Of a stretch of 44,356 bases of DNA, positions 3,087 through 19,400 are shown in pieces. The stretch is from the IMG/VR virus record IMGVR_UViG_3300044466_000065, positions 1 to 44,356 of that record; one strand, given 5' to 3'. Under the pieces are notes generated by a model that saw nothing but the letters and a program-made list of their open reading frames with translations, was not told where the DNA came from and made no database searches. How positions within the stretch are numbered: the first letter of the stretch is position 1; each line of letters begins with the position of its first letter. Both the position numbers and the translations under genes were made by a program. Source of the stretch: a virus.

Positions 3087-3242
3087 ATGAACACACAACA
3101 GGCATTAGAGGACGCATTGACGTTCCTCGAATCACTCGGCGTCAAAGGCGGCGACGTGCACGATTACTTCGCGCAGGCTATCGAACGGCTGAAAGCCGCC
3201 GCTCCGGCGGCGATGGCAAGCGAACTCGAGGTCATCCTGTGA
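3087..3242 (+). CDS. Hypothetical protein, 51 aa
   Basis: Hand translation MNTQQALEDALTFLESLGVKGGDVHDYFAQAIERLKAAAPAAMASELEVIL; its stop TGA overlaps the GTG start of the methylase gene (GTGA). Confidence 0.6.
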   Translation: MNTQQALEDALTFLESLGVKGGDVHDYFAQAIERLKAAAPAAMASELEVIL

Positions 3243-4120
3243 TCTATCAGGGCGATGCTCTCGAAACCCTCCAGACCCTGCCGAGTGAATCGGTCCATTG
3301 CGCGGTCACTTCGCCGCCCTACTACGGGCTGCGAGACTACGGCATTGCCGGCCAAATCGGGCGCGAGATATCGCCCGATGAATACGTGGCTCGCCTCGTC
3401 GAGGTGTTCGCCGAGGTGCGGCGCGTATTGCGTCCCGATGGCACGCTCTGGGTCAATATCGGCGATTCCTATGCCTCGCGCAAGTCCTCGGATGGGTTGA
3501 AGCCCAAGGACATGGTCGGCATCCCCTGGCTGCTCGCGTTCGCGTTGCGCCGGGATGGCTGGTACCTCAGGCAGGACATCGTGTGGGACAAGCCCAACGG
3601 CATGCCAGAGAACGTGGCCGATCGCTGCACCAAGACCCATGAGTACGTATTCCTGCTCTCGAAAAGCGCCACGTACTATTTCAATGCCAAGGCCATCGAG
3701 GAACGAGCCATTCAGGCGGGGCGCGTGCGGGCCGATAAGATGGGCGGCAACAAGGGGGACAAGGTCCATCATTCCCCCGGCAAGGTCTTCACCGGGAGCG
3801 ACACGCGCCGGTGCCGCGCCGTCTGGAACCTGAATACCCGTCCGTTGAAGGACGCCCATTTCGCGCCGTTCCCCATCGAGTTGCCGGAGCGCTGCCTGTT
3901 GGCGGGCTGCCCGGAAGGTGGCACGGTTCTTGATCCGTTCTTCGGGGCGGGCACGACTGGACTCGCCGCCCTCAAGAATGGCCGGGAATTCATCGGCATC
4001 GAACTGAACCCGGAGTACGTGGCGCTCGCCGAGGCGCGCATCGATGGCGAGTATCCGCTCTTTGCCCCGCTCGCGCCGCCCTGCTCGGTGAGCGCCGAGG
4101 GCAGTCTGGTGTACGCATGA
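3239..4120 (+). CDS. DNA methyltransferase, N6_N4_Mtase family (beta class; SPPY motif, m4C-like)
   Basis: Catalytic motif VTSPPYYGLRDY near the N-terminus and AdoMet motif VLDPFFGAGTTG near the C-terminus; no partner restriction enzyme. Confidence 0.92.
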   Translation: MIYQGDALETLQTLPSESVHCAVTSPPYYGLRDYGIAGQIGREISPDEYVARLVEVFAEVRRVLRPDGTLWVNIGDSYASRKSSDGLKPKDMVGIPWLLAFALRRDGWYLRQDIVWDKPNGMPENVADRCTKTHEYVFLLSKSATYYFNAKAIEERAIQAGRVRADKMGGNKGDKVHHSPGKVFTGSDTRRCRAVWNLNTRPLKDAHFAPFPIELPERCLLAGCPEGGTVLDPFFGAGTTGLAALKNGREFIGIELNPEYVALAEARIDGEYPLFAPLAPPCSVSAEGSLVYA

Positions 4121-6006: not shown

Positions 6007-6929
6007 TGAGCGACAATCTCCCGATGAAGATGGGTCTGGCCGAGGTCCAGACCCTCGGCGCTTTGCTCGCCAAGTCCGGCTATTTCCAGGATGCCAAGGA
6101 CGCGGCGCAGGCGTGTGTCAAGGTGTTGGCAGGGCAGGAGTTGGGTCTGCCCCCGATCGCCTCGATGATGGGCATCTCCTTGATAAAAGGGAAGGTTACC
6201 CTCTCCGCCAACCTCATGGCCGCCTTGATCCGCCAGCATGGCTACGACTTCCGCGTTGAGCGGCTCGAACAGGATGGCTGCACCCTCTCCTTCCTCGCCA
6301 AGGATGGCAAGGAACTCGGCAAGTCCACCTTCACCGCCAAGGATGCTCAGGCCGCCGGCATCCGCGGCGACATGTATAACAAATACCCCCGCAACATGTA
6401 CTTTGCCCGGGCGATCAGCAACGGGGCCAAGTGGTTCACGCCGGAGATCTTCGGCGGCGTGCCCGTCTACTCGGATGGCGAACTCGGTGGCGACGAGGGA
6501 GAGGTGGTTCAGCCGGAGCCTGCTCCTGCCCCCGTGCCTGCGCGCCAAACGGCTACGTCTGTACGCATCGAGGGTGCCCGCCAGCCCGTCGAGGAGGCCA
6601 AGCCTGCCCCGGTGCCTCTCCCCGACATAGAGCCGCGCCTCGCCGAACTGTACGCGCAGGCGACCGGGTTTGCCGAGACGGTGCAAATCGTGACCGGGTT
6701 CAAGCCGATCATCAACGAACTCACCGGCTCCGAGCACGAGTACTATCGCATCATCAATTCGCATGGCATGCAGCACGGGAATGAGTTGCAGGGAAAAACC
6801 CGCGGGCAGATCCGCAAAGTGATTAAAGACTTGTATGAGTACTGTGCGACGATCGCTAGCCCGCCTCCCCCCGATCCGGCTGAAGCGGCTGAAGCCTGGG
6901 ATGCTCTCGCGGAGGGCACCGATGTATAG
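6006..6929 (+). CDS. RecT/Redbeta-like single-strand annealing protein (tentative)
   Basis: GQELGLPPIASMMGISLIKGKVTLSANLMAALI and YPRNMYFARAISNGAKWF resemble phage SSAP families; a Gp157-like gene follows two genes downstream. Confidence 0.55.
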   Translation: MSDNLPMKMGLAEVQTLGALLAKSGYFQDAKDAAQACVKVLAGQELGLPPIASMMGISLIKGKVTLSANLMAALIRQHGYDFRVERLEQDGCTLSFLAKDGKELGKSTFTAKDAQAAGIRGDMYNKYPRNMYFARAISNGAKWFTPEIFGGVPVYSDGELGGDEGEVVQPEPAPAPVPARQTATSVRIEGARQPVEEAKPAPVPLPDIEPRLAELYAQATGFAETVQIVTGFKPIINELTGSEHEYYRIINSHGMQHGNELQGKTRGQIRKVIKDLYEYCATIASPPPPDPAEAAEAWDALAEGTDV

Positions 6930-7335
6930 AACCCACGGCATGAGGAACAGCCCCGAGAACGAGGCTTGGCACGCCATGAAACAGCGGTGCAACAACCCGA
7001 AGAGTCAGGCTTACAAGAACTACGGTGGCAGGGGCATCCAGGTCTGTCCCGAATGGGCTTCCTTCGAAGCCTTCTACCGGGACATGGGACCGCGCCCGAG
7101 TCCCAAGCATAGTCTCGAACGGATCGACAACGAGCGAGGCTACGAGGCAGGGAACTGCCGCTGGGCCACTCTGATCGAGCAGCACCAGAACACACGCTAC
7201 TCCCGGTTCCTGGAGTTTGGCGGAGAAACCAAAGCCTGCGCCGAATGGTGCAGGGAACTCGGCATCAAACCATCGACGCTGTGTGACCGGCTGAAACGGG
7301 GATGGTCCGACGAGATGGCTTTAGGATACCGATGA
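6922..7335 (+). CDS. Homing-endonuclease-associated AP2-like DNA-binding protein (paralog of 41947..42360)
   Basis: EAWHAMKQRCNNPKSQAYKNYGGRGIQVCPEW...SLERIDNERGYEAGNCRWAT, a recurrent phage motif; start overlaps the upstream stop. Confidence 0.7.
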   Translation: MYRTHGMRNSPENEAWHAMKQRCNNPKSQAYKNYGGRGIQVCPEWASFEAFYRDMGPRPSPKHSLERIDNERGYEAGNCRWATLIEQHQNTRYSRFLEFGGETKACAEWCRELGIKPSTLCDRLKRGWSDEMALGYR

Positions 7336-9695: not shown

Positions 9696-9986
9696 ATGAT
9701 TGACAAGCTAGTCTCCAACGCAGGGGAGAAGATCACGGGGAGACCATGCGAACTATGCCGAAACACCGGCATCGTCTCACTCGTAGGTAGACCGGCGCGC
9801 GTTCGCTTCGAAGATATCTGGAAGTGGCAGGCCCCCTGCGGCTGCCATGCTGGGGACCAGTGGCGGAAGGAAGCGCAGGTCTGCCTCGCGCCGCCGCCGT
9901 GCGAGGTGTGCGGCAGGCTCGCCGAGGTCACCCTCACCACCTACCCGCGCTGCGTGAAGTGCGATCTGGGTCGGCGGTGTTGCTAG
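9696..9986 (+). CDS. Cys-rich hypothetical protein
   Basis: CELC, CGC, CEVC and CVKC cysteine pairs. Confidence 0.6.
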   Translation: MIDKLVSNAGEKITGRPCELCRNTGIVSLVGRPARVRFEDIWKWQAPCGCHAGDQWRKEAQVCLAPPPCEVCGRLAEVTLTTYPRCVKCDLGRRCC

Positions 9987-9993
9987 GCGGCCA

Positions 9994-10176
9994 ATGTCTT
10001 ATACCGATTTGATGGACGCGCGGGACATCATTGAGGTGGCGCTTCTCAAAGTGTATGAAGAGCAGGGATTTACACCTGCCTGGCACACCCTCTCACATGC
10101 CGAGAGTCATATCAGCGGGCAGGCTCGGGAAGCCTTGCGCGGGATCGCATGGAAAGTCGAGCGCCCGGAGCGATGA
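9994..10176 (+). CDS. Hypothetical protein
   Basis: 60-aa ORF. Confidence 0.6.
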   Translation: MSYTDLMDARDIIEVALLKVYEEQGFTPAWHTLSHAESHISGQAREALRGIAWKVERPER

Positions 10177-10370
10177 GGGGAGTGACCTACATCCGCCGCA
10201 ATCCGTTCCGGTTCTCGATCAACGAAGGCGGCTGGGGGTTCGTCCTTTCCCACGGCATGGAGTTCGGCGAAGGCAATGATACCTACGGCTTCTGCTACCC
10301 GCTTTCCTTCCTTGGCATCCATCCCCGCTGGACCTGGCGCGGCTGGTTCAAGAACCTGCGGAAGGTATGA
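10173..10370 (+). CDS. Hypothetical protein
   Basis: ATGA-coupled start (MRGVTYIRRNPF...). Confidence 0.6.
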   Translation: MRGVTYIRRNPFRFSINEGGWGFVLSHGMEFGEGNDTYGFCYPLSFLGIHPRWTWRGWFKNLRKV

Positions 10371-11055
10371 GATGTTGCTTAAGCAGTTAGCCTTGTACGC
10401 TCGCGTCTTCGACGCCGCGCACTTCTTTCTGCCCTCAATTCCTATGCTTCACAGAGGTGCATGGTATATGGCCGGTGCGGCCATGCCTCGCGGGGCGAGG
10501 TTATCTTTGCTGCGCGCTTCGCTTGCTCTGACTGCGCGCTTCGCTTGCCCTGAAACTCGTCGGGCCACTTGCTACCTAAGTAACGAGTGGCCCGATCTGT
10601 CTAGTAGGTGCGCCGTTGAGCGCAGTCCGATCTTAACACATAACCTATGGAGATTCCCGAGCAGACGCACCGGGACCTACCACCCGGTCCCGATCGCGAT
10701 AACCCACGGTTTCATCCGTCGCTTTCCGCAGGTGGCTTCGATCTTGGGTATGCCACCAACCTGTCCGAATTCCTCTGCGCCGGGGAAGAGTTCCTCTCGG
10801 GGATGCACCGGTGCTGGGACTTGGACCCGCACCGTCCGACCATTTCAGGCCGACCGGTCCTTCTGCCGTATCAAAATACGGCGTACACTCCGCAGAGACG
10901 CTTTACGTGGTCTGTTAGGATACACCGGTCGACGCAGGCTATGTCCTGTCATTGACTGTTCCACGCTGATGCTGAGATTTATGCCTCATATCACGGCTGC
11001 GCCTACCAGAGCGCGCCACCTTCCGATGACCTCAGAAGTATACACCTAAACTCGT
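10371..11055 (+). other. 685-bp ORF-poor, hairpin- and repeat-dense segment (candidate structured RNA or replication origin)
   Basis: Only non-protein-like ORFs cover it. Stable local hairpins, an exact 17-nt direct repeat (10510-10526 and 10532-10548) and three ACCGGT-centred palindromes. It is the only large gap in an otherwise overlapping gene array. Confidence 0.5.
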
Positions 11056-11775
11056 ATGCCCAAGCGGAAAATTGTGAGCGACGTTGACGCCTACGACCGC
11101 ATGCCTGCGGCACAGTTCACCGCGCCGCCGCTTAAGCCCAAGCGGAAGAAGCTGAATCCACGCCAGCGCAAGCGCCTTCGCCAACAGTTAAAGGTGGTTC
11201 CCGACCAGTGGTACAAGCGCTACATGAACCACCTCCGCTCCCAGAAGTGGCGGCTGTTCAAGGTCAACATCCTCGCCGAGCGGGGTACGATGTGCGAACG
11301 CTGCGGGAAATTCGGTAAGCAACTGGAGCTACACCACATCAACTATGCGAGGATGGGCCACGAATTACCCGAGGACGTGAAGCTCTATTGCAGAGACTGT
11401 CACACCGACATGCACCGGCACCGGTCGTGGAAGGGCCGAGGCAAAAAACTAATTACGGAGAAGCACATGGCAGAAGAGACTCCGAAATCCCCGGAAAATT
11501 CCGGTGAAGCGAAAGAGCATCTGCACGAGTGGGAGAACCTGGAACCGGGCAAGTGGCGATGCACCATCTGCCAGATAGAGGGCATCGGCCCGGTGAAGTA
11601 CGTGTCGAAGTGCTTGGTCTGCGGGTATCCGGCCGCCCTGCACCTCGGCGGCCCCGACGACCACGGCTACCCCTACGTGCACGTCACGCTCGAGGACGTG
11701 GAGCTTTGGAGAAAAGCGGGCGACTCCGAGCAGGCGATCATGTCGCGCATCGCAGCAAGGGGCATGGCCGAATGA
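11056..11775 (+). CDS. HNH nuclease with Arg/Lys-rich N-terminus and C-terminal zinc ribbon
   Basis: CERCGKFGKQLELHHINYARMGHELPEDVKLYCRDCHTDMH is an HNH motif; N-terminal KPKRKKLNPRQRKRLRQQLK; CTIC...CLVC. Confidence 0.8.
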   Translation: MPKRKIVSDVDAYDRMPAAQFTAPPLKPKRKKLNPRQRKRLRQQLKVVPDQWYKRYMNHLRSQKWRLFKVNILAERGTMCERCGKFGKQLELHHINYARMGHELPEDVKLYCRDCHTDMHRHRSWKGRGKKLITEKHMAEETPKSPENSGEAKEHLHEWENLEPGKWRCTICQIEGIGPVKYVSKCLVCGYPAALHLGGPDDHGYPYVHVTLEDVELWRKAGDSEQAIMSRIAARGMAE

Positions 11776-12404: not shown

Positions 12405-13602
12405 GAACTGGCTCAAGGCGTACATGAGTTACACCGCGGCGACAGAACCGCCCGCCATTTTCAATTACTGGGTTGGGGTGAGTACCATCGCGGCCGCCTT
12501 GCAGGGGAAGGTGTATCTGGGAATGGGTTTATTCGAGTGGACTCCCACTTCGTACATCATCCTCGTCGGACCCAGCGGCTGCGGCAAGTCGAGCGCCATT
12601 CACTCCGGCATGAACCTGCTGCGCCAGGTGAAGGGAATTCACTTCGGGTCCGACACCCTGACGTGGCAAGCGATGATCGACGAGCTGCTCGCCACCACCG
12701 TCACCCGCGGCAAGGGCACGCAGCGCCGCCACTCCTCGATAACGTATGCCGTCGATGAGCTGGGTACTTTCTTGAACCCACGCGACAACAAGCTGATGTC
12801 GAGTCTCACGAAATTGTGGGGCGGAGACGGCGGGCAGAACTTCTCGAAGTCGACGAGGGGCGAAGGATTGCTGGAGGTGATGCGGCCGCAGCTTAACCTT
12901 CTGGCCGGCGCAACGCCATCCTGGATATCGGAGCATCTGCCCCCCGCGCTGATCGGCGGCGGGTTCACCAGCCGCTGCGTACTCGTGTATGCCGAAGCGA
13001 AGCAGAACCTGGTGGCCTACCCGCGGCGCGCGAGTTTGCAGCAGGGACTCGGCGAGGTGTGGAAGATGGGACCGAAGCTCACCGAGGATCTGGTTGCCAT
13101 CTCGAAACTGCAAGGCGAGTTCACCCTCAGCGAAGAAGCGTATGCGCGCGGCGAATCCTGGTACGAGCAATCATCGAAGCTGCCTCCAGTGGGTCTGCCC
13201 CCAGAACATTTTTCCGGTTATTTAAATAGGCGCCAGGCTCACATGCATAAGCTCGCGATGTCGTTGAGTGCGGCTGAAAACAATTCGCTGATCATCGAGT
13301 CCCGGCATTTGGATGAAGCCATCATGATGCTCGAGACAACGGAGAGAACCATGCCGGTAGCCATCGCCGGTCTCAATGAGGAACTTCGTCCTGCGATCCG
13401 GGTCGAAGAAGTTCTACGCCGGTATGGCTCTGTAAACCAAGTCGATCTCTACGCTCGGTTCAAAAACAAAATGGACTGGCGGACTTTTATACAAATCCTG
13501 AAGCAGCTTGAAGACGCCGGCATGGTTTGCGAAACACACACCGCCACCGGCCGCGCGGTGCGCTGGCTCGGAGCACAACCAAAAGACTCGCTGCCGAGTT
13601 AG
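12388..13602 (+). CDS. DUF3987-like P-loop NTPase (putative replicative helicase or primase-associated)
   Basis: GGAGGAG RBS then ATG 12388 (MARHFENW...); Walker A ILVGPSGCGKSS; VDELG; overall layout typical of DUF3987 phage proteins. Confidence 0.8.
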   Translation: MARHFENWLKAYMSYTAATEPPAIFNYWVGVSTIAAALQGKVYLGMGLFEWTPTSYIILVGPSGCGKSSAIHSGMNLLRQVKGIHFGSDTLTWQAMIDELLATTVTRGKGTQRRHSSITYAVDELGTFLNPRDNKLMSSLTKLWGGDGGQNFSKSTRGEGLLEVMRPQLNLLAGATPSWISEHLPPALIGGGFTSRCVLVYAEAKQNLVAYPRRASLQQGLGEVWKMGPKLTEDLVAISKLQGEFTLSEEAYARGESWYEQSSKLPPVGLPPEHFSGYLNRRQAHMHKLAMSLSAAENNSLIIESRHLDEAIMMLETTERTMPVAIAGLNEELRPAIRVEEVLRRYGSVNQVDLYARFKNKMDWRTFIQILKQLEDAGMVCETHTATGRAVRWLGAQPKDSLPS

Positions 13603-16600
13603 CGCGGCATCGGATACGTGTCAGGGTAGAGACCCTTCAGGCGATCCCGCATGAATTGGCGCTGCCGATGCGGACCGGCAGGCGTGCCGCTCTCCTCGAG
13701 ATTCTGTTTCTTGTCGCGCATCATGAAGCTTCGGTGATACGTCCCCAGAGTGCGCTCGAAACTCTGCGGCAGAATCTTGTTGATCTTGGCGATCTCCTCG
13801 TGGACTAGCGCCCGTTCCTCCGGGTTGCCCGTCCGGCTATAGGCGGCATTATATTTGCGCTGCATCCCGTCGAGCAGCCCGTTGTAGTAGATCGACAATT
13901 CCGCATTGGCATACTGCTGCTCCTGCGCCTTGGCCGCGCGGCCGGACCGGGCACCGAGCGCCACGCCCACCACCTCGGCGACATGCGAGGGATTGGATGT
14001 GTCGATGCCGACGACCTTCTCGCCGCTGGCGCTGCTGATCTGCTTGTCGCGCAAGGTTTCCCTCGCCCGCTCCGCTCTCGCCATCCAAGCCGGCACGAGC
14101 GCCTTGAAGACTTGCTCCGACACCGGGCCGCCTTCGACGGCAGCCTTCATGGCAGTCATGAGTTGGCCGCCCCACGGGCCACCCACTTCCTCGCCTATAT
14201 TCCAGAACCCTGTCTTGGCGTTCATCCTGCCGCCGAACATCTTGATGACCTCGTCTACGCCCGGGATGGGATCCGCCTGGCTGAAGGCGTCTTTCAAATC
14301 GTACGGGCCGATCTTGCTATTCGCACCGTTGATGGCATAGTCGGCCACTTCCTCACTCGTGGACCGGGCGATCAGTTCTCGGACCGTCTGCTGGATGTCG
14401 AGGTAGGGATCCTTCGTACCCATCCACTTCCGGAACCAGGTGCCGAGCGCATTGATCAGAGCCATGAGGGGTGCGGCTCCCAAGAAACCCCGGAGGCCGC
14501 CGAGAAATAACTGCGTGATGAATAACTTCTTCTTGGCCTGGCTCTGCGTCTGAAGCCAGATGTTATTCATCAGGAAACTTTTGAAGATGAGCGGTATCGC
14601 CAGCCCGCGCTGGAGCATGGAACGGTTCGAAGGCTCATGGCTCCCCTGCGCCTTGAGCACCACATCCCTGGCTGCCATGTAGGGATCGGGGTGGCCTTGC
14701 TTGGCGAAGGCCCGGGAGCCAGCCAGGAGACCGACACGCCGGGTCCACTCCTCGCTCCACTGGTGGCCGGCCAGACTCCATTCGCCGAACGTCTTGAAGA
14801 GCTTGTCTATCCCCCGGCCCACGCCCTGCACGTCGGTTCCCCCCTCCTTGCCGAAGCCGAGGGGATGGAGGCCGAAGATGCCGGTGAGTCCCTGCTCGAA
14901 GGTGGAGATGTTGGCGAGGCCGGCGATCTGGTGGGCGTTGCTGTCGCCGGTCAGCCCTTCGCCCCGGCCCCGTTGCAGCACTGCCCAGTCCTCTTCGGAG
15001 AGGCCACCGGTGTAGTTCTCCTGGTAGGTTTCGTACTCGCCGCCACCGCGCAGCTTCATCCGCACCTTGTGGCTAGTCCGGTCATAGGCCCGCTTGGTGT
15101 AGACCTTGGTCACATCATGCATCGCCCGCGTGATTTCCCAAGCGGCTCTGGGCATGCCGACCTCGGCCGACAACACCTGAGCGACGTTGAGCACCTGGAC
15201 GAAGTTCTGGTAGATCTGCACGGGACCGAAGCCGAGGAACCAGGTAGCGGCGGCGCCGACGATCGAGTTGTTCTGCACCTTCGGATTGAGAAGGGCGGTC
15301 TTGGTGTCCTTCATCAGGTCGGTCAGGCGGTTGACGTGCGAGGTGTCGACGATGACGTTGCTGCCGCTCACCATCTCGTTGCGCCACTTTTCCGCATCGA
15401 GTACGGACTGCTCGAGGTTCCCGCGCTGCTCCGTCCGCCCGATGTGATTGGCAATCGAGGAGACGTAGGCGGAGAAGGCGCGCTGCGCGTCCCGGCTGAA
15501 GCCCTTGGTTCCCTTGCGGCGGTTCAGGCGGGAGAAGAAGGAGCGCTGGTTCATCGAGGCCGCGATGATCTGGTCGAACGCCGCTTCGAACGTGGCACGC
15601 TGCTCGGCGGTCAGGTTGAGATCCGCCGCGAGTTTGCCGGCCAGTTTCCTGGTGACGGCAGGCGGAAGATACCCGGCATCCCGCGCCTCGGCGGTGGTAT
15701 TCTCCATGATCCTGATGCCGCCGGGTTCGATGGTAATCCCTTCGTCCCGGTAGCGCTCCTCCATAGCCCTGGCCGCATCCTTGGCGGCGTGCTCGGTCGG
15801 GAGGTGCTCGACCTGATCGACTTGCAGTTTGCCGTTGGCATCGCGCCTCTTGGCTACGACCATCCACTGGCCGAAGCGATCCAGAGGAAAATAGTTTCCG
15901 CGCATCTTCTCGTCGAACTGCGCGTTGATCTCGGCGGTGGCTTTGGCAAGTGCATCCGGGTCGGAGATCTCGCGCTGGAGTTCGGAGATCGTCGCCTGCC
16001 GCAGCGCTTCCCAGGAGTCATGGAAGAACTGCTGGATCTGGTGGTAGACCTCGTAGCCCTTTTCGCTGACGCCGTAGAGGTCGCCGGTACGGGCCAGTTC
16101 CTCGGGAGAGAGCTTGCGTTGAAACGTGTCGCTCGCCTTGGTGGCGGCAAAGGCCAGATCGCTGACGGCTTGCGCCTGCTCCGATCCGAGATTGCGCCAT
16201 GCCTTGGCGATCTCCCCGCCCCGGTCCTTCCACCGGAAGACTTCTATCTCCAGCCGGTCCTTGGCCTTGAGCATCGCCTGGATGGGAGCGAAGTCCTTGA
16301 ATTTCCAGGCCGCCCAGCGGAACTGGGTGAGGAGGCGCTGCAACCTTCCGAAGCTTTTGACCGAATCTTTGAAGCGGTCTGCGGGAGGAAGGTTCGGGTT
16401 GGTGGCATCGGGCATCGCGCCCAACGGAGGCAGCGGGGGCGGTTCCACCCGGGCCTGACCCGGCAGTGGGGGAGGCTGCCCGGAAACCTGCGCTGGCTGG
16501 CCCTGTAGCGAGCCGGTGGGCTGGGTGGCTGTGACGGACGCCGGACGGGCAGCGGGCGCTCCTGGGCTAACTGGCGGTGCAGCAGAGGGCATCAGCCGAG

Positions 16601-19400
16601 CCTTCATCGAGATGTCAGCAGGAAGCTCGCGGTTCTGGTGGAACCCAGCAGCAATCGATTGCTCCGGGTAGTCAGCCTCGATGAGCGGGTGGTTGGTCGG
16701 GATGTCGACGTAGTAGACACCGCCGTTACCCGCCACCTGCTTATCAGCGTAAGCCTGAGCATAGACGGGATCACTGGAAAACCAGCGAGGCCCGTCGATG
16801 GGCACGTCCTTCGCGCCTCCGCTATACATCCGAGTCATGCCGGGTTTCGGCGGTGGCGGCGCAGCAGCGGGCATTCCTGCACGCCTCTCCGCTTCGACAA
16901 TCTTCTCCGCCTCCTGGAATATGTCTATCGCCGCCATCCGCACCTGCGGACCGTACTTGGCCACGATCGCCTCGACGAAATTCCCAACATGAATCAATCC
17001 ACGGGCCACGTCGCCCCGGATCGAGAGCGCCATCTTGCTGATGACTTTCGGATCGAGGAAGGCGCCCATCGAAGCCCGTCCGCCGGTGAAGAGACCCATC
17101 TTGCGGAGTTCTTCGTCGGCTGCTTTGCCTTCGGCATCCCACTTGTCGAGCGTACTCTGAGGCACAGGTTCCTCGACCCCCGCAGCCTGGAGAGTACTGT
17201 CAACGAACACATCCTCGCTGCGCGCAGGCTGAGGGCCGGTCGGGGTATCTACCACCATGTCGGCATCGGGAGCCTCAGGCTTCAGGGTTGTCGGCCTACT
17301 CCAGTCGATGTTTCCCTGCTCGTCCGTCGAGATGCCCTGTTGGGCGAGCCATGCCCGGTACTCGGGCACGTTGATGTTTGGCCCAGGTGCTGCCGCAGAG
17401 GGAGGTGCCACTGGCTGCGGAGGCTGGACATTGACGCCCGGCCGAACAGCTCCGATATCGTGGAAGCGCGGCTCCGGCGTTCGCCCCTGTGCCTCTTCCA
17501 CGCTCTTCGCCCACGTCAGCAGATCCGCTCTCGTCGGCGCAGGTTCCGGTGCGGCTACCGATGGTGCCGGTTCGGGGGTAGTCTCCCAAACCTCGATCAG
17601 CTTCTGCCGGATGTCCACAGCCTGCGGGTCTTCCGATCCCAGCCACTCCCACAGAAGCTCGTGCACCTGCGGGTCGTTGGGATGCACCGGGTCACCCCGC
17701 ATCGACAACCGGCGACTTATCTCTTCCCGCGCATCGCCAAGCAACACGGCAGCCGGGTCCACCACCCTCTCCTGCGGGATCACGCCGGCGCGCCGCTGCT
17801 CCTGGCTCTGCCTTTGGAATACCTGCGCCGACTGCTCGGCAGGACTCGTTCCCGGGGCAGGCGTCTGCGTCGGACCCGTTAACCCGAAGGCTTCGGCTGA
17901 TGCACGGGCCGAGGGAATCATGCCTGTTCCGGGGGGAGTCGGTGCGTAAGGAAGCGGCGGAAGCGGTGGCACCGGGCGACCACTGTAGTTGAAGTCCTGG
18001 AGTTGCCGGGTGCGGAACACCTCGGCGGATTCTTCAGCCGGACCCGGTGGCGGCGTCGGTATCGGCGGGCCGAAGGCTTCAGCGGATCTACGGGCTGCAC
18101 CTCCCCCAGGACTGAGATCCTTAGGCGGCACTCCGGTGGCAGGTTGGATGATGAACTGAACCGGGGGCGCGGCTTTCGCGTTGTAGGCGTCGAAGTTCAT
18201 CGTCCGCTTGGTCATCGGTGAGGGCTTCTCCGGGCGATGCGCCAGATGCCCGCCGCCCTCCATCAGGAAGCTGAAAAGGAATGTCTCGAATAGCCGCCAG
18301 AACGTGTCGGTCTGCGGGATGTTGTAGTACTTCTCATGCAGGATCGCCATGATCTCCTGCACCAACTCGGTGATGGAACCGACACTAGCCGTTGCGAGAA
18401 ACCCCTTGGTGATACCTCGCATGGCGAGGAAGGGAGCAACGCTGTTGAGAGCAGCGATGAAAGCACCGACTCCCACAGAGGAGCCGGGCGCTTTGACGCC
18501 GAGCTTTTCCATCTCGTTGTAGCGTTGCCCGATATCGTTGGTGGCGCTCGCCACGAAACCGCCAAGGGGACCACCGGCGATTGTGCCCGCTACCGTGAAG
18601 GCCATCGGGCCGAACATCTTACCCAGCCTGAACCCGGCGTAGTCCATGATCGTGGACTTACCCGTCGCCACGTCCTCGTGGGTTGGCCCCTCATAATCCA
18701 TGTAACTCCGGAACGTCGGATCGGTGATCCACGGCTTCTTGAGTTCGCCAATATCCTCGGAGAGAGGTTTCTTTTTCTTGTATTTGTCTTTGACTAAACT
18801 CGCCTTGGCGTTTTCCTGTGTCGCGACTAAGGCTTGGAGGGTGGCAATGGCATTGTTGGGCAAGTCTTTCAGACTCGCCGCCGCGCCCTGCGCCCCTAGG
18901 ACCGCACCCGGACCAACGGATGCCCTGACTCCCGTATTGACCGCCTGCCGCATGATGTCGGGTAAGTTGGCGGGTGCAGGCTCAGGCCCACCAGGTGCCA
19001 ATCCCGGAGGCAACGGAGGCGGAGGCACTACTGGAGTCCTGGTGGTTATCGTCGTGCGTCCATCCGGACCCACTGACGAGGTCACATACTGAGGACGTGC
19101 CACGGTGAGTTGAGGCACGCCGCTGACGCGAGGCGCAGGCGCACCAAAGACAGGCGCAGAGGGACTCTGTTGAGGAAGCCCCCCTGTTGCAACCGCCGGG
19201 GATACCGCCGTTGCCGACGGAGCTTGGCCCACCGGCACCACGCCAGTGGGCATAGGTTGAGCAGCAGTGGGAGCAACCCCCACGGGAATGACTCCCGGCG
19301 GCATGGGTAGGGGTGCTCTACTTACCCCGGCAGGAGCACTCACGGAGACGCCGCTTATTGGAATAACTCCAGGCGGCATGGGAAAAGCTCGGCTGCTCAT
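13599..19400 (-). CDS. Giant virion-associated protein, PLxRFG-domain type (1,933 aa)
   Basis: NYFPLDRFGQW motif (DNA 15870-15887); Pro-rich N-terminal repeats MPPGVIP; hydrophobic segments; last gene of the structural module. Confidence 0.88.
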   Translation of the reverse strand: MSSRAFPMPPGVIPISGVSVSAPAGVSRAPLPMPPGVIPVGVAPTAAQPMPTGVVPVGQAPSATAVSPAVATGGLPQQSPSAPVFGAPAPRVSGVPQLTVARPQYVTSSVGPDGRTTITTRTPVVPPPPLPPGLAPGGPEPAPANLPDIMRQAVNTGVRASVGPGAVLGAQGAAASLKDLPNNAIATLQALVATQENAKASLVKDKYKKKKPLSEDIGELKKPWITDPTFRSYMDYEGPTHEDVATGKSTIMDYAGFRLGKMFGPMAFTVAGTIAGGPLGGFVASATNDIGQRYNEMEKLGVKAPGSSVGVGAFIAALNSVAPFLAMRGITKGFLATASVGSITELVQEIMAILHEKYYNIPQTDTFWRLFETFLFSFLMEGGGHLAHRPEKPSPMTKRTMNFDAYNAKAAPPVQFIIQPATGVPPKDLSPGGGAARRSAEAFGPPIPTPPPGPAEESAEVFRTRQLQDFNYSGRPVPPLPPLPYAPTPPGTGMIPSARASAEAFGLTGPTQTPAPGTSPAEQSAQVFQRQSQEQRRAGVIPQERVVDPAAVLLGDAREEISRRLSMRGDPVHPNDPQVHELLWEWLGSEDPQAVDIRQKLIEVWETTPEPAPSVAAPEPAPTRADLLTWAKSVEEAQGRTPEPRFHDIGAVRPGVNVQPPQPVAPPSAAAPGPNINVPEYRAWLAQQGISTDEQGNIDWSRPTTLKPEAPDADMVVDTPTGPQPARSEDVFVDSTLQAAGVEEPVPQSTLDKWDAEGKAADEELRKMGLFTGGRASMGAFLDPKVISKMALSIRGDVARGLIHVGNFVEAIVAKYGPQVRMAAIDIFQEAEKIVEAERRAGMPAAAPPPPKPGMTRMYSGGAKDVPIDGPRWFSSDPVYAQAYADKQVAGNGGVYYVDIPTNHPLIEADYPEQSIAAGFHQNRELPADISMKARLMPSAAPPVSPGAPAARPASVTATQPTGSLQGQPAQVSGQPPPLPGQARVEPPPLPPLGAMPDATNPNLPPADRFKDSVKSFGRLQRLLTQFRWAAWKFKDFAPIQAMLKAKDRLEIEVFRWKDRGGEIAKAWRNLGSEQAQAVSDLAFAATKASDTFQRKLSPEELARTGDLYGVSEKGYEVYHQIQQFFHDSWEALRQATISELQREISDPDALAKATAEINAQFDEKMRGNYFPLDRFGQWMVVAKRRDANGKLQVDQVEHLPTEHAAKDAARAMEERYRDEGITIEPGGIRIMENTTAEARDAGYLPPAVTRKLAGKLAADLNLTAEQRATFEAAFDQIIAASMNQRSFFSRLNRRKGTKGFSRDAQRAFSAYVSSIANHIGRTEQRGNLEQSVLDAEKWRNEMVSGSNVIVDTSHVNRLTDLMKDTKTALLNPKVQNNSIVGAAATWFLGFGPVQIYQNFVQVLNVAQVLSAEVGMPRAAWEITRAMHDVTKVYTKRAYDRTSHKVRMKLRGGGEYETYQENYTGGLSEEDWAVLQRGRGEGLTGDSNAHQIAGLANISTFEQGLTGIFGLHPLGFGKEGGTDVQGVGRGIDKLFKTFGEWSLAGHQWSEEWTRRVGLLAGSRAFAKQGHPDPYMAARDVVLKAQGSHEPSNRSMLQRGLAIPLIFKSFLMNNIWLQTQSQAKKKLFITQLFLGGLRGFLGAAPLMALINALGTWFRKWMGTKDPYLDIQQTVRELIARSTSEEVADYAINGANSKIGPYDLKDAFSQADPIPGVDEVIKMFGGRMNAKTGFWNIGEEVGGPWGGQLMTAMKAAVEGGPVSEQVFKALVPAWMARAERARETLRDKQISSASGEKVVGIDTSNPSHVAEVVGVALGARSGRAAKAQEQQYANAELSIYYNGLLDGMQRKYNAAYSRTGNPEERALVHEEIAKINKILPQSFERTLGTYHRSFMMRDKKQNLEESGTPAGPHRQRQFMRDRLKGLYPDTYPMPR

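Follow-up and report, generated by a model that had tools for sequence, protein, structure and literature searches.

The DNA analysed here, hereafter the window, is the whole of IMG/VR virus record IMGVR_UViG_3300044466_000065 (44,356 nucleotides, nt), a near-complete-looking phage genome of ~44 kb with relatives of similar size (L001, 45.2 kb; L004, 43.8 kb). Its early module is read on the plus strand and encodes, in this order, a methyltransferase, a RecT-like protein, an HNH protein, a Gam-like protein and the small protein g96, followed by the element described below, a further HNH protein and a DUF3987 primase. The late module, on the minus strand, encodes the terminase, the portal, the major head protein, tail fibres and an orphan protein of 1933 amino acids. 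The rightward module (~2.3-13.6 kb) is tightly packed, and an earlier note on this DNA had singled out the 685 bp at 10371-11055 as an exception within it. On a crude gene map based on GC content at third codon positions (GC3), these 685 bp are indeed the largest stretch without a gene-like open reading frame (ORF). In this study, we found that positions 10386-11052 of the window are a discrete, conserved and previously undescribed folded nucleic-acid element of ~660 bases, belonging to a small clade of uncultured soil phages.

The limits of the element were taken from two alignments (A1 and A2), in which it begins with GTTAGCCTTGTACGC at 10386 and ends directly past GAAGTATACACCTAAAC at 11052. 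The 5' edge is sharp, with four different upstream genes adjoining it across the homologues. About 11 distinct homologous sequences were collected, 550-650 nt long, ~80% identical to the window and derived from independent soil metagenomes. A protein search with the translated plus-strand frame gave six clusters (P0001-P0006) and their contigs, a search with the HNH protein gave one IMG/VR contig (L001), and a scan of DNA for an invariant 24-mer, which does not depend on any ORF, gave six more JGI contigs. One homologue, L015, is a twin of the window at 99% identity. The homologues are mosaics of a few alternative sub-modules: the 5' subdomain has two types (A and B), the two conserved halves are separated by an insert that varies in size, and the 3' part has two variants. 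Matches to an nhmmer profile of the element were confined to this phage clade, with the core alone recovered in a distant locus, L045 (E = 8e-13). There was no blastn match in 50,697 cultured-phage records, and neither nhmmer nor the covariance model R1 found the element in the primase-anchored IMG/VR loci L029-L041. A search for tRNA and tmRNA genes found none. The terminase shares no more than 33% identity with its counterpart in any cultured phage and so gives no clue to the host.

The element folds clearly better than expected from its composition. Against dinucleotide shuffles, the minimum free energy (MFE) of the window sequence has a z-score of -3.1 on the plus strand and -4.2 on the minus strand, and four homologues give -4.25/-4.49, -3.31/-3.66, -3.54/-4.92 and -2.23/-4.31 (plus/minus; -2.2 to -4.9 overall), whereas six 650-nt coding pieces of the same phage range from -0.9 to +0.5 on either strand. 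On the plus strand, RNAalifold predicted 125 pairs with 96.8% of the alignment cells paired. The number of pairs with double changes was 24, compared with 13.6 +/- 2.1 in shuffles (0 of 500 reached 24) and 3-7 in slid controls, the pairs being counted on the very alignments from which the structures were derived. The same count on the minus strand, for which 139 pairs were predicted, was 31, compared with 15.3 +/- 2.3 in shuffles (0 of 500 reached 31) and 2-7 in slid controls. Two generic marks of a structured RNA are found here, namely compensatory changes above controls and a folding energy below that of shuffles and of the coding background. A large structured nucleic-acid element, the general idea of the earlier note, is strongly supported by the folding z-scores and by the covariation across about 11 homologues. 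The fold is a nested one of many helices, which is maintained by compensatory substitutions and carries invariant blocks in loops and junctions.

The local features listed in the earlier note are present in the window (stems at 10468-84, 10486-500, 10560-95, 10670-93, 10731-57 and 10865-82, the tandem repeat at 10510-53 and the HNH start codon at 11056), and most of the element can be described in terms of helices, to which no strand is assigned here. At its 5' end lies a hairpin of the form CGC..GCGTC-TTC-GACGC..GCG (10398-10419), in which 5 of 10 sequences have A-T in place of G-C at one pair, with all cells still paired. The variable 5' subdomain follows (10440-10505; columns 60-135 of alignment A2). 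The window carries type A, with hairpins at 10470-82 and 10487-99, and the unrelated type B of L007, L011 and L017 includes a mini-ORF of 20-23 codons with a TAG stop, an ATG 2 nt on, and TAGGTATG after the mini-ORF. On the plus strand, a 22-nt tandem duplication (10510-10553, 95% match) is private to the window and L015; since the net difference from the single copy in L001 is +21 nt (the duplication plus a 1-nt loss), it leaves the reading frame discussed below intact. A long hairpin of 16 bp (10560-10595, inverted repeat I1) comes next, and its mismatches in L001-type sequences are A.C on the plus strand, which are G.U on the minus strand.

The central core (10645-10781) is the most conserved part of the element and includes the motif AACCTGT and hairpins at 10670-77/10686-93, 10706-09/10716-19 and 10731-57. 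The first of these occurs across the family as GGGACC/GGTCCC, GAGACC/GGTCTC and GGTACC/GGTACC. The last, GGTGGC and GCCACC around a 15-nt loop, is invariant in the family, and its counterpart in L045 is CATGGC/GCCATG, which amounts to two in-register double changes. A bracketing helix, CTCTGCG/CGCAGAG (10773-79 with 10891-97), is replaced at the same columns elsewhere by TGTCGCG/CGCGACA, giving four double changes, and it encloses an insert that varies in length and sequence among lineages. In the window this insert (~10780-10890) contains the hairpin at 10865-82 and two ACCGGT sites. Several features of the earlier note turned out to be local to it: the 10865-82 hairpin is private to the window and L015, and so are both of the long-range pairings that had been suggested, which lie in, or depend on, the window-specific insert or the duplication. 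The three ACCGGT palindromes do form an unusual local cluster, although two of the three are private to the window and the motif is not enriched in the window as a whole (9 occurrences, 9.3 expected). The 3' domain (10898-11046), on which model R1 was built, includes nested helices at 10906-10/10961-65, 10926-38/10945-58 and 10967-76/10985-93 together with the invariant block GGTCTGTTAGGATACACCGGTCGACGCAGGCTATGTCCTGTCAT; in the plus-strand count, its helices 22, 24 and 25 have 3, 1 and 3 double-change pairs. A likeness to this domain noticed by eye in L045 (AGGATACACC) was unsupported, as model R1 found none there with its filters off. A tetraloop-receptor interaction (CCUAAG/UAUGG) was also considered and ruled out, the CCTAAG not being conserved.

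As to the strand that functions, the minus strand, antisense to the early operon, is the more probable one, which we regard as a lean and not as a result. The minus strand has the lower MFE and z-score in five of five lineages, and its RNAalifold consensus energy is -132.5, compared with -104.6 for the plus strand. Ninety of the predicted pairs are common to both strands. Within them, the non-Watson-Crick cells that are G.U number 45 for the minus strand and 14 for the plus strand; counted by column, the same pairs give 18 versus 7. The minus strand is purine-rich overall, and its unpaired columns are 38% A and 15% C. A-rich, C-poor unpaired positions are usual for structured RNAs.

The plus strand has a further property, a stop-free frame that runs through the whole element from the ATG at 10372 to the TAA at 11047-49, six bases before the HNH start codon. 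The ATG lies one base past the upstream stop codon (TGA-G-ATG) and six bases past GGAAGG, so the absence of a ribosome-binding site noted earlier holds for the start at 10276 and fails for this second possible start. Similar junctions are found at the start of the frame elsewhere, with an ATGA overlap in L007, L010 and L014 and TAGATG in L012. No stop interrupts the frame in the 15 element-bearing loci checked, and L014 has a single one close to the 3' end; each of the other five frames contains 2-13 stops. This openness extends to the variants recovered by the ORF-independent DNA scan, and in dinucleotide shuffles a full-length open frame arises with p ~0.0007-0.005 per sequence. A second sense frame is open for 309 nt across the core (10647-10955), where two of the three sense frames are consequently stop-free, and L014 uses this second frame for its full-length open frame. 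A shadow ORF of a minus-strand gene was ruled out as the cause, all minus-strand frames having 2-13 stops.

These observations invite the explanation that 10372-11049 is a real protein gene, coding for a fast-evolving, highly basic, disordered product in which only composition matters, with the fold incidental to GC-richness. Such a gene would account for a frame that is open in every operon-embedded member, for gene-like start and stop junctions with a plausible ribosome-binding site, for several indels with lengths divisible by three (21, 12 and 12 nt) and for the gene callers' predictions P0001-P0006. Against it stand the substitution patterns, in which the ratio of nonsynonymous to synonymous change (pN/pS) for the ORF frame, 0.76-1.08, is like that for the other frames, 0.67-1.13, compared with 0.20-0.29 for g96, the HNH gene and the primase gene in their true frames. 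GC content at the three codon positions of the ORF frame is.52/.60/.60, lacking the GC3 signature of the neighbouring genes (.64-.80). Blocks of 40-45 nt show zero synonymous change, and the reading frame shifts relative to the conserved blocks among homologues, such that invariant 45-nt blocks are not always read in the same frame; relative to the window, the frame is displaced across ~300 nt in L014 and across ~100 nt in L001. The product matches no family in Pfam or PHROG, no homologous protein was recovered from outside the element, and AlphaFold2 on a six-sequence alignment gave a mean predicted local distance difference test score of 40.9. A protein gene would also leave unexplained the 24-31 compensatory pairs and z-scores far below those of real genes, and the core of L045 lies in a divergent intergenic position and not within a long frame. 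We therefore consider a protein gene very unlikely. There is no protein-level selection on the open frame, as the earlier note implied when it dismissed the ORF, although it had not noticed that the frame stays open in every member embedded in an early operon. What appears to be selected is openness itself, not the product. The frame would then be a consequence of its context, which fits the L045 core lying outside any long frame.

Directly past the element lies an HNH endonuclease cassette (11053-11434, plus strand), with its ATG at 11056 and the HNH motif at amino acids 80-121. The motif matched Pfam PF01844 (E = 5e-5, above the cut-off) and 18 PHROG families, 16 of which are annotated as HNH endonuclease, and Pfam found no domain besides HNH in the protein, such as the RuvC nuclease domain of IscB. 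The annotated 239-amino-acid 'HNH' ORF of the window (11053-11775) is a composite. The cassette, which codes for 137-150 amino acids, has no stop of its own here, and its frame continues through the native upstream region of the next gene (GGAG at 11456-59) into that gene, which codes for 102 amino acids (ATG 11467, 11467-11775, plus strand) and is kept in relatives with and without the element. In L007 the two are separate, and the HNH gene is a stand-alone one of 150 amino acids. In L014 the cassette is precisely absent, homology to 10886-11052 joining directly to homology to 11435-11500 (...GAAGTATACATCAAACC|TGCCGAGG...). More distant relatives of the HNH protein, 46-62% identical, occur in other contexts. 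In L045, an HNH gene of 46% identity (656-1063) is immediately preceded by the 130-nt homologue of the element core (494-635), which lies on the opposite (minus) strand. A 93-amino-acid ORF adjoining the core there (513->232) has a random-like composition (GC at the three codon positions.49/.56/.62).

This neighbourhood bears on a reading in which the plus strand is a cis-acting structured leader or a guide-like RNA for the HNH protein, either in the manner of HEARO and omega RNAs or in translational control of the HNH gene and the genes downstream. The HNH gene does adjoin the element in most members, L045 with its 46%-identical protein included; the plus strand is in operon sense and also covaries; the HNH ATG, 6 nt past the stop of the open frame, lacks a Shine-Dalgarno sequence; and the N-terminus of the protein is rich in Arg and Lys. 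Nevertheless, the functional coupling to HNH put forward in the earlier note is not supported by comparison of the loci, since the element is kept without the cassette in L014 and the core and the HNH gene point in opposite directions in L045, while L043 and L046 have related HNH genes and no element. In addition, there is no HEARO match, the protein is HNH-only by Pfam, the composition and G.U statistics lean to the minus strand, and ribosomes on the open frame would unfold a plus-strand structure. A leader or guide RNA is thus quite unlikely.

The HNH gene instead appears to be a separate mobile insertion between the element and the next gene, not an RNA partner. A free-standing homing endonuclease that targets very conserved DNA would be expected to recur beside it in variable orientation and to be present in some relatives and absent from others, which is unexpected for a fixed RNA-protein pair or a 5' leader; we infer that such an enzyme was inserted beside the element, whose highly conserved DNA it probably targets. 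The likeness to free-standing phage HNH homing endonucleases lies in the presence or absence of the cassette at an identical junction, in its position between conserved sequences, and in the recurrence of related HNH genes beside the same conserved core. A difference is that the window cassette is without the stop codon it once had, so that its frame extends into the gene that follows. The window phages and their relatives are rich in free-standing nucleases, with further HNH-type genes at 6835-7335 of the window (phrog_3377, early module), at 8930-9475 of L007 and at 3052-3636 of L014 (HNH_3, opposite strand).

An adjacent homing-type HNH gene, a large RNA-like structured segment and presence/absence polymorphism could also point to a degenerate or ORF-less self-splicing intron, of group I or II, carrying its homing endonuclease, as the earlier note had considered. 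This idea is effectively refuted. No group I or II model matched, even permissively, and there is no reverse transcriptase. Complete genes, different ones in four contexts, lie at the 5' flank and a complete gene lies at the 3' flank, so that no exon or host gene is split, and the relatives without the element hold a different 2.5-kb module in place of fused flanks.

The module that takes its place provides the main hint at function. All seven element-less relatives examined (L002, L004, L005 and L029-L032) carry a DUF1376 / Phage_rep_org_N-like gene and a DnaB helicase gene in the same slot, which is bounded by the same flanking genes (for example, L005 2476-4635) and which in the window holds g96, small genes, the element and the HNH gene. 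Neither a DnaB nor a replisome organiser was found anywhere in the 44-kb window, and the DUF3987 primase gene lies 1.3 kb downstream of the element. In most loci that bear the element, it is preceded by the g96 gene (9696-9986, plus strand), coding for a Cys-rich protein of 96 amino acids. This protein has a single distant homologue (129 amino acids, 62% identity; L042, within 921-1825), the gene of which runs into the start of a DnaB helicase gene, and g96 is tied to replication modules by this position directly upstream of DnaB. Between g96 and the element, the window has two small plus-strand genes within 9981-10375 (9994-10176 and 10149/10173-10370), which are missing in L001; there g96 adjoins the element directly, and the junction lies at the microhomology GTGTTGCT / ATGTTGCT. 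Because the element fills the organiser and DnaB slot of its sister phages, a role in initiation or control of replication is the leading guess as to function, on circumstantial evidence from slot occupancy.

From this synteny it is a short step to a replication origin or initiation element proper. It might be an origin at the DNA level, a site of single-strand initiation, or the stretch from which a structured primer RNA or regulatory RNA is copied, much as ColE1 RNA II is, and it would serve as an alternative replication module in place of the replisome organiser and DnaB of the sister phages. Slot occupancy in seven of seven relatives, the lack of DnaB and organiser in the window, the position of the g96 homologue and the nearby primase all speak for it. 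Moreover, the good folding of both strands and the occurrence of the core in both orientations relative to the HNH gene suit a DNA-level site. On the other hand, the sequence lacks what an origin of the iteron kind would need. The direct repeat that the earlier note took for possible iterons is the single tandem duplication private to the window and L015, no iterons are conserved, and there is no AT-rich unwinding region, the GC content being 0.58, where the genome has about 0.60, and AT-rich tracts being absent. Only synteny is left of that earlier proposal. Long-range nested helices with G.U-type tolerance resemble RNA, not duplex DNA; the early regions of phages are hot spots of mosaicism, which makes the slot replacement circumstantial evidence; and the open frame would be left unexplained. 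On balance, we consider an origin unlikely, though it deserves to be taken seriously.

Some other features of these genomes may be mentioned here. The ORF for the 1933-amino-acid protein (13599-19400, minus strand) converges on the primase gene with a 4-nt overlap and has no Pfam or PDB similarity, matching only giant PHROG families of unknown function. Hairpin promoters of an N4-like virion RNA polymerase were considered only, the 1933-amino-acid protein being without Pfam or PDB similarity. The DNA methyltransferase gene of the window (3239-4120, phrog_67) and a PTPS/QueD-like gene close by in relatives (L007 4445-4789) hint at DNA modification.

Among known systems, the element bears a general likeness to GOLLD and ROOL, which are large ornate structured RNAs often found in phages and prophages and are represented as Rfam families. 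Like them, it is several hundred nt long and phage-borne, with a multi-domain nested covarying fold and invariant loop and junction blocks. Unlike them, it is not intergenic beside tRNAs and is embedded in a coupled operon with one frame kept open, and its distribution is very narrow, being limited to one soil-phage clade. It has no sequence or structure match in Rfam 15. In gathering mode and in permissive searches (E <= 10 for the window, E <= 5 for five homologous loci), no family was matched, including the HEARO/omega, GOLLD and ROOL families that the earlier note had proposed, and only chance hits were obtained (Flavi_NKV_CRE, E = 5.3, inside the HNH gene; RMST_1, E = 1.1, elsewhere). The likeness to HEARO and the omega RNA of IscB is that a structured segment lies directly upstream of an HNH ORF. 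Here, in contrast, the protein of 137-150 amino acids has no other IscB domain by Pfam, and there is no co-inheritance in a fixed orientation, the element persisting without HNH in L014 and inverted to it in L045. Interchangeable replication modules are generally known in phages, and the element resembles one in its position in the organiser and DnaB slot, in its location inside a presumably translated frame and in its RNA II-like size. The lambda origin lies within gene O, and ColE1 RNA II is a structured primer RNA of ~550 nt. The element differs in having no iterons, no AT-rich region and no sequence similarity to RNA II.

Considering all the above results, the explanation we favour, with a probability of about 0.5, is that 10386-11052 of the window is a member of an undescribed family of structured elements of ~550-650 nt, most likely RNA, in the early or replication block of these phages. 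The sense strand would be kept as a stop-free pass-through frame, the product of which is irrelevant, inside a tightly coupled rightward operon. Ribosomes could then run from the upstream to the downstream genes across the element without polarity or Rho termination and, on leaving the pass-through frame at its stop, might re-initiate at the HNH ATG. In this way, the open frame would spare the HNH gene and the replication genes from polarity.

Several points weigh against this explanation or parts of it. The covariation counts come from ~4 independent lineages per segment, and the segments are recombinant mosaics, so the counts are inflated by shared ancestry, and swaps of whole modules can mimic compensatory change. 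With regard to the minus strand, all tests were passed by both strands, some helices favour the plus strand (10926-58 has three G.U pairs on it), and in L045 the element-sense strand folds better. Scans of both strands for sigma-70-like promoters and for terminators recognised neither, and the single terminator-like hairpin (10485-10501) is missing in the type-B variants. The structure could also act as single-stranded DNA instead of RNA. A selected pass-through frame is itself a deduction, and a fast-evolving basic peptide might still be made from it. Finally, the family is tiny. Exact and degenerate patterns of the invariant core had 0 matches in 185k reference genomes, and core scans of IMG/VR returned the L001 contig only. 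The small family and the lack of an inferable host limit the confidence and the reach of our conclusions.

For the annotation of such phages, the consequence is direct, as the output of gene callers for the element is a hypothetical protein, and public databases already contain six protein clusters of this kind. For a family of free-standing HNH homing endonucleases, the element is also a clearly delimited candidate for the target. If the element is an RNA, it would represent a new class among the few large structured RNAs described from phages. To our knowledge, there is no described precedent for the dual constraint suggested here, in which the same or the opposite strand is kept translatable without a conserved protein. 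A more far-reaching and rather doubtful version would be that a minus-strand RNA gene of ~600 nt, lying within the early operon and antisense to it, with a product-less and frame-flexible sense pass-through ORF, forms together with g96 an RNA-based module for the initiation or control of replication, in place of the protein-based organiser and DnaB. The clean alternation of the element with the organiser and DnaB module makes its function testable, the question being whether an RNA or DNA element can take the place of a protein module for the initiation of replication.

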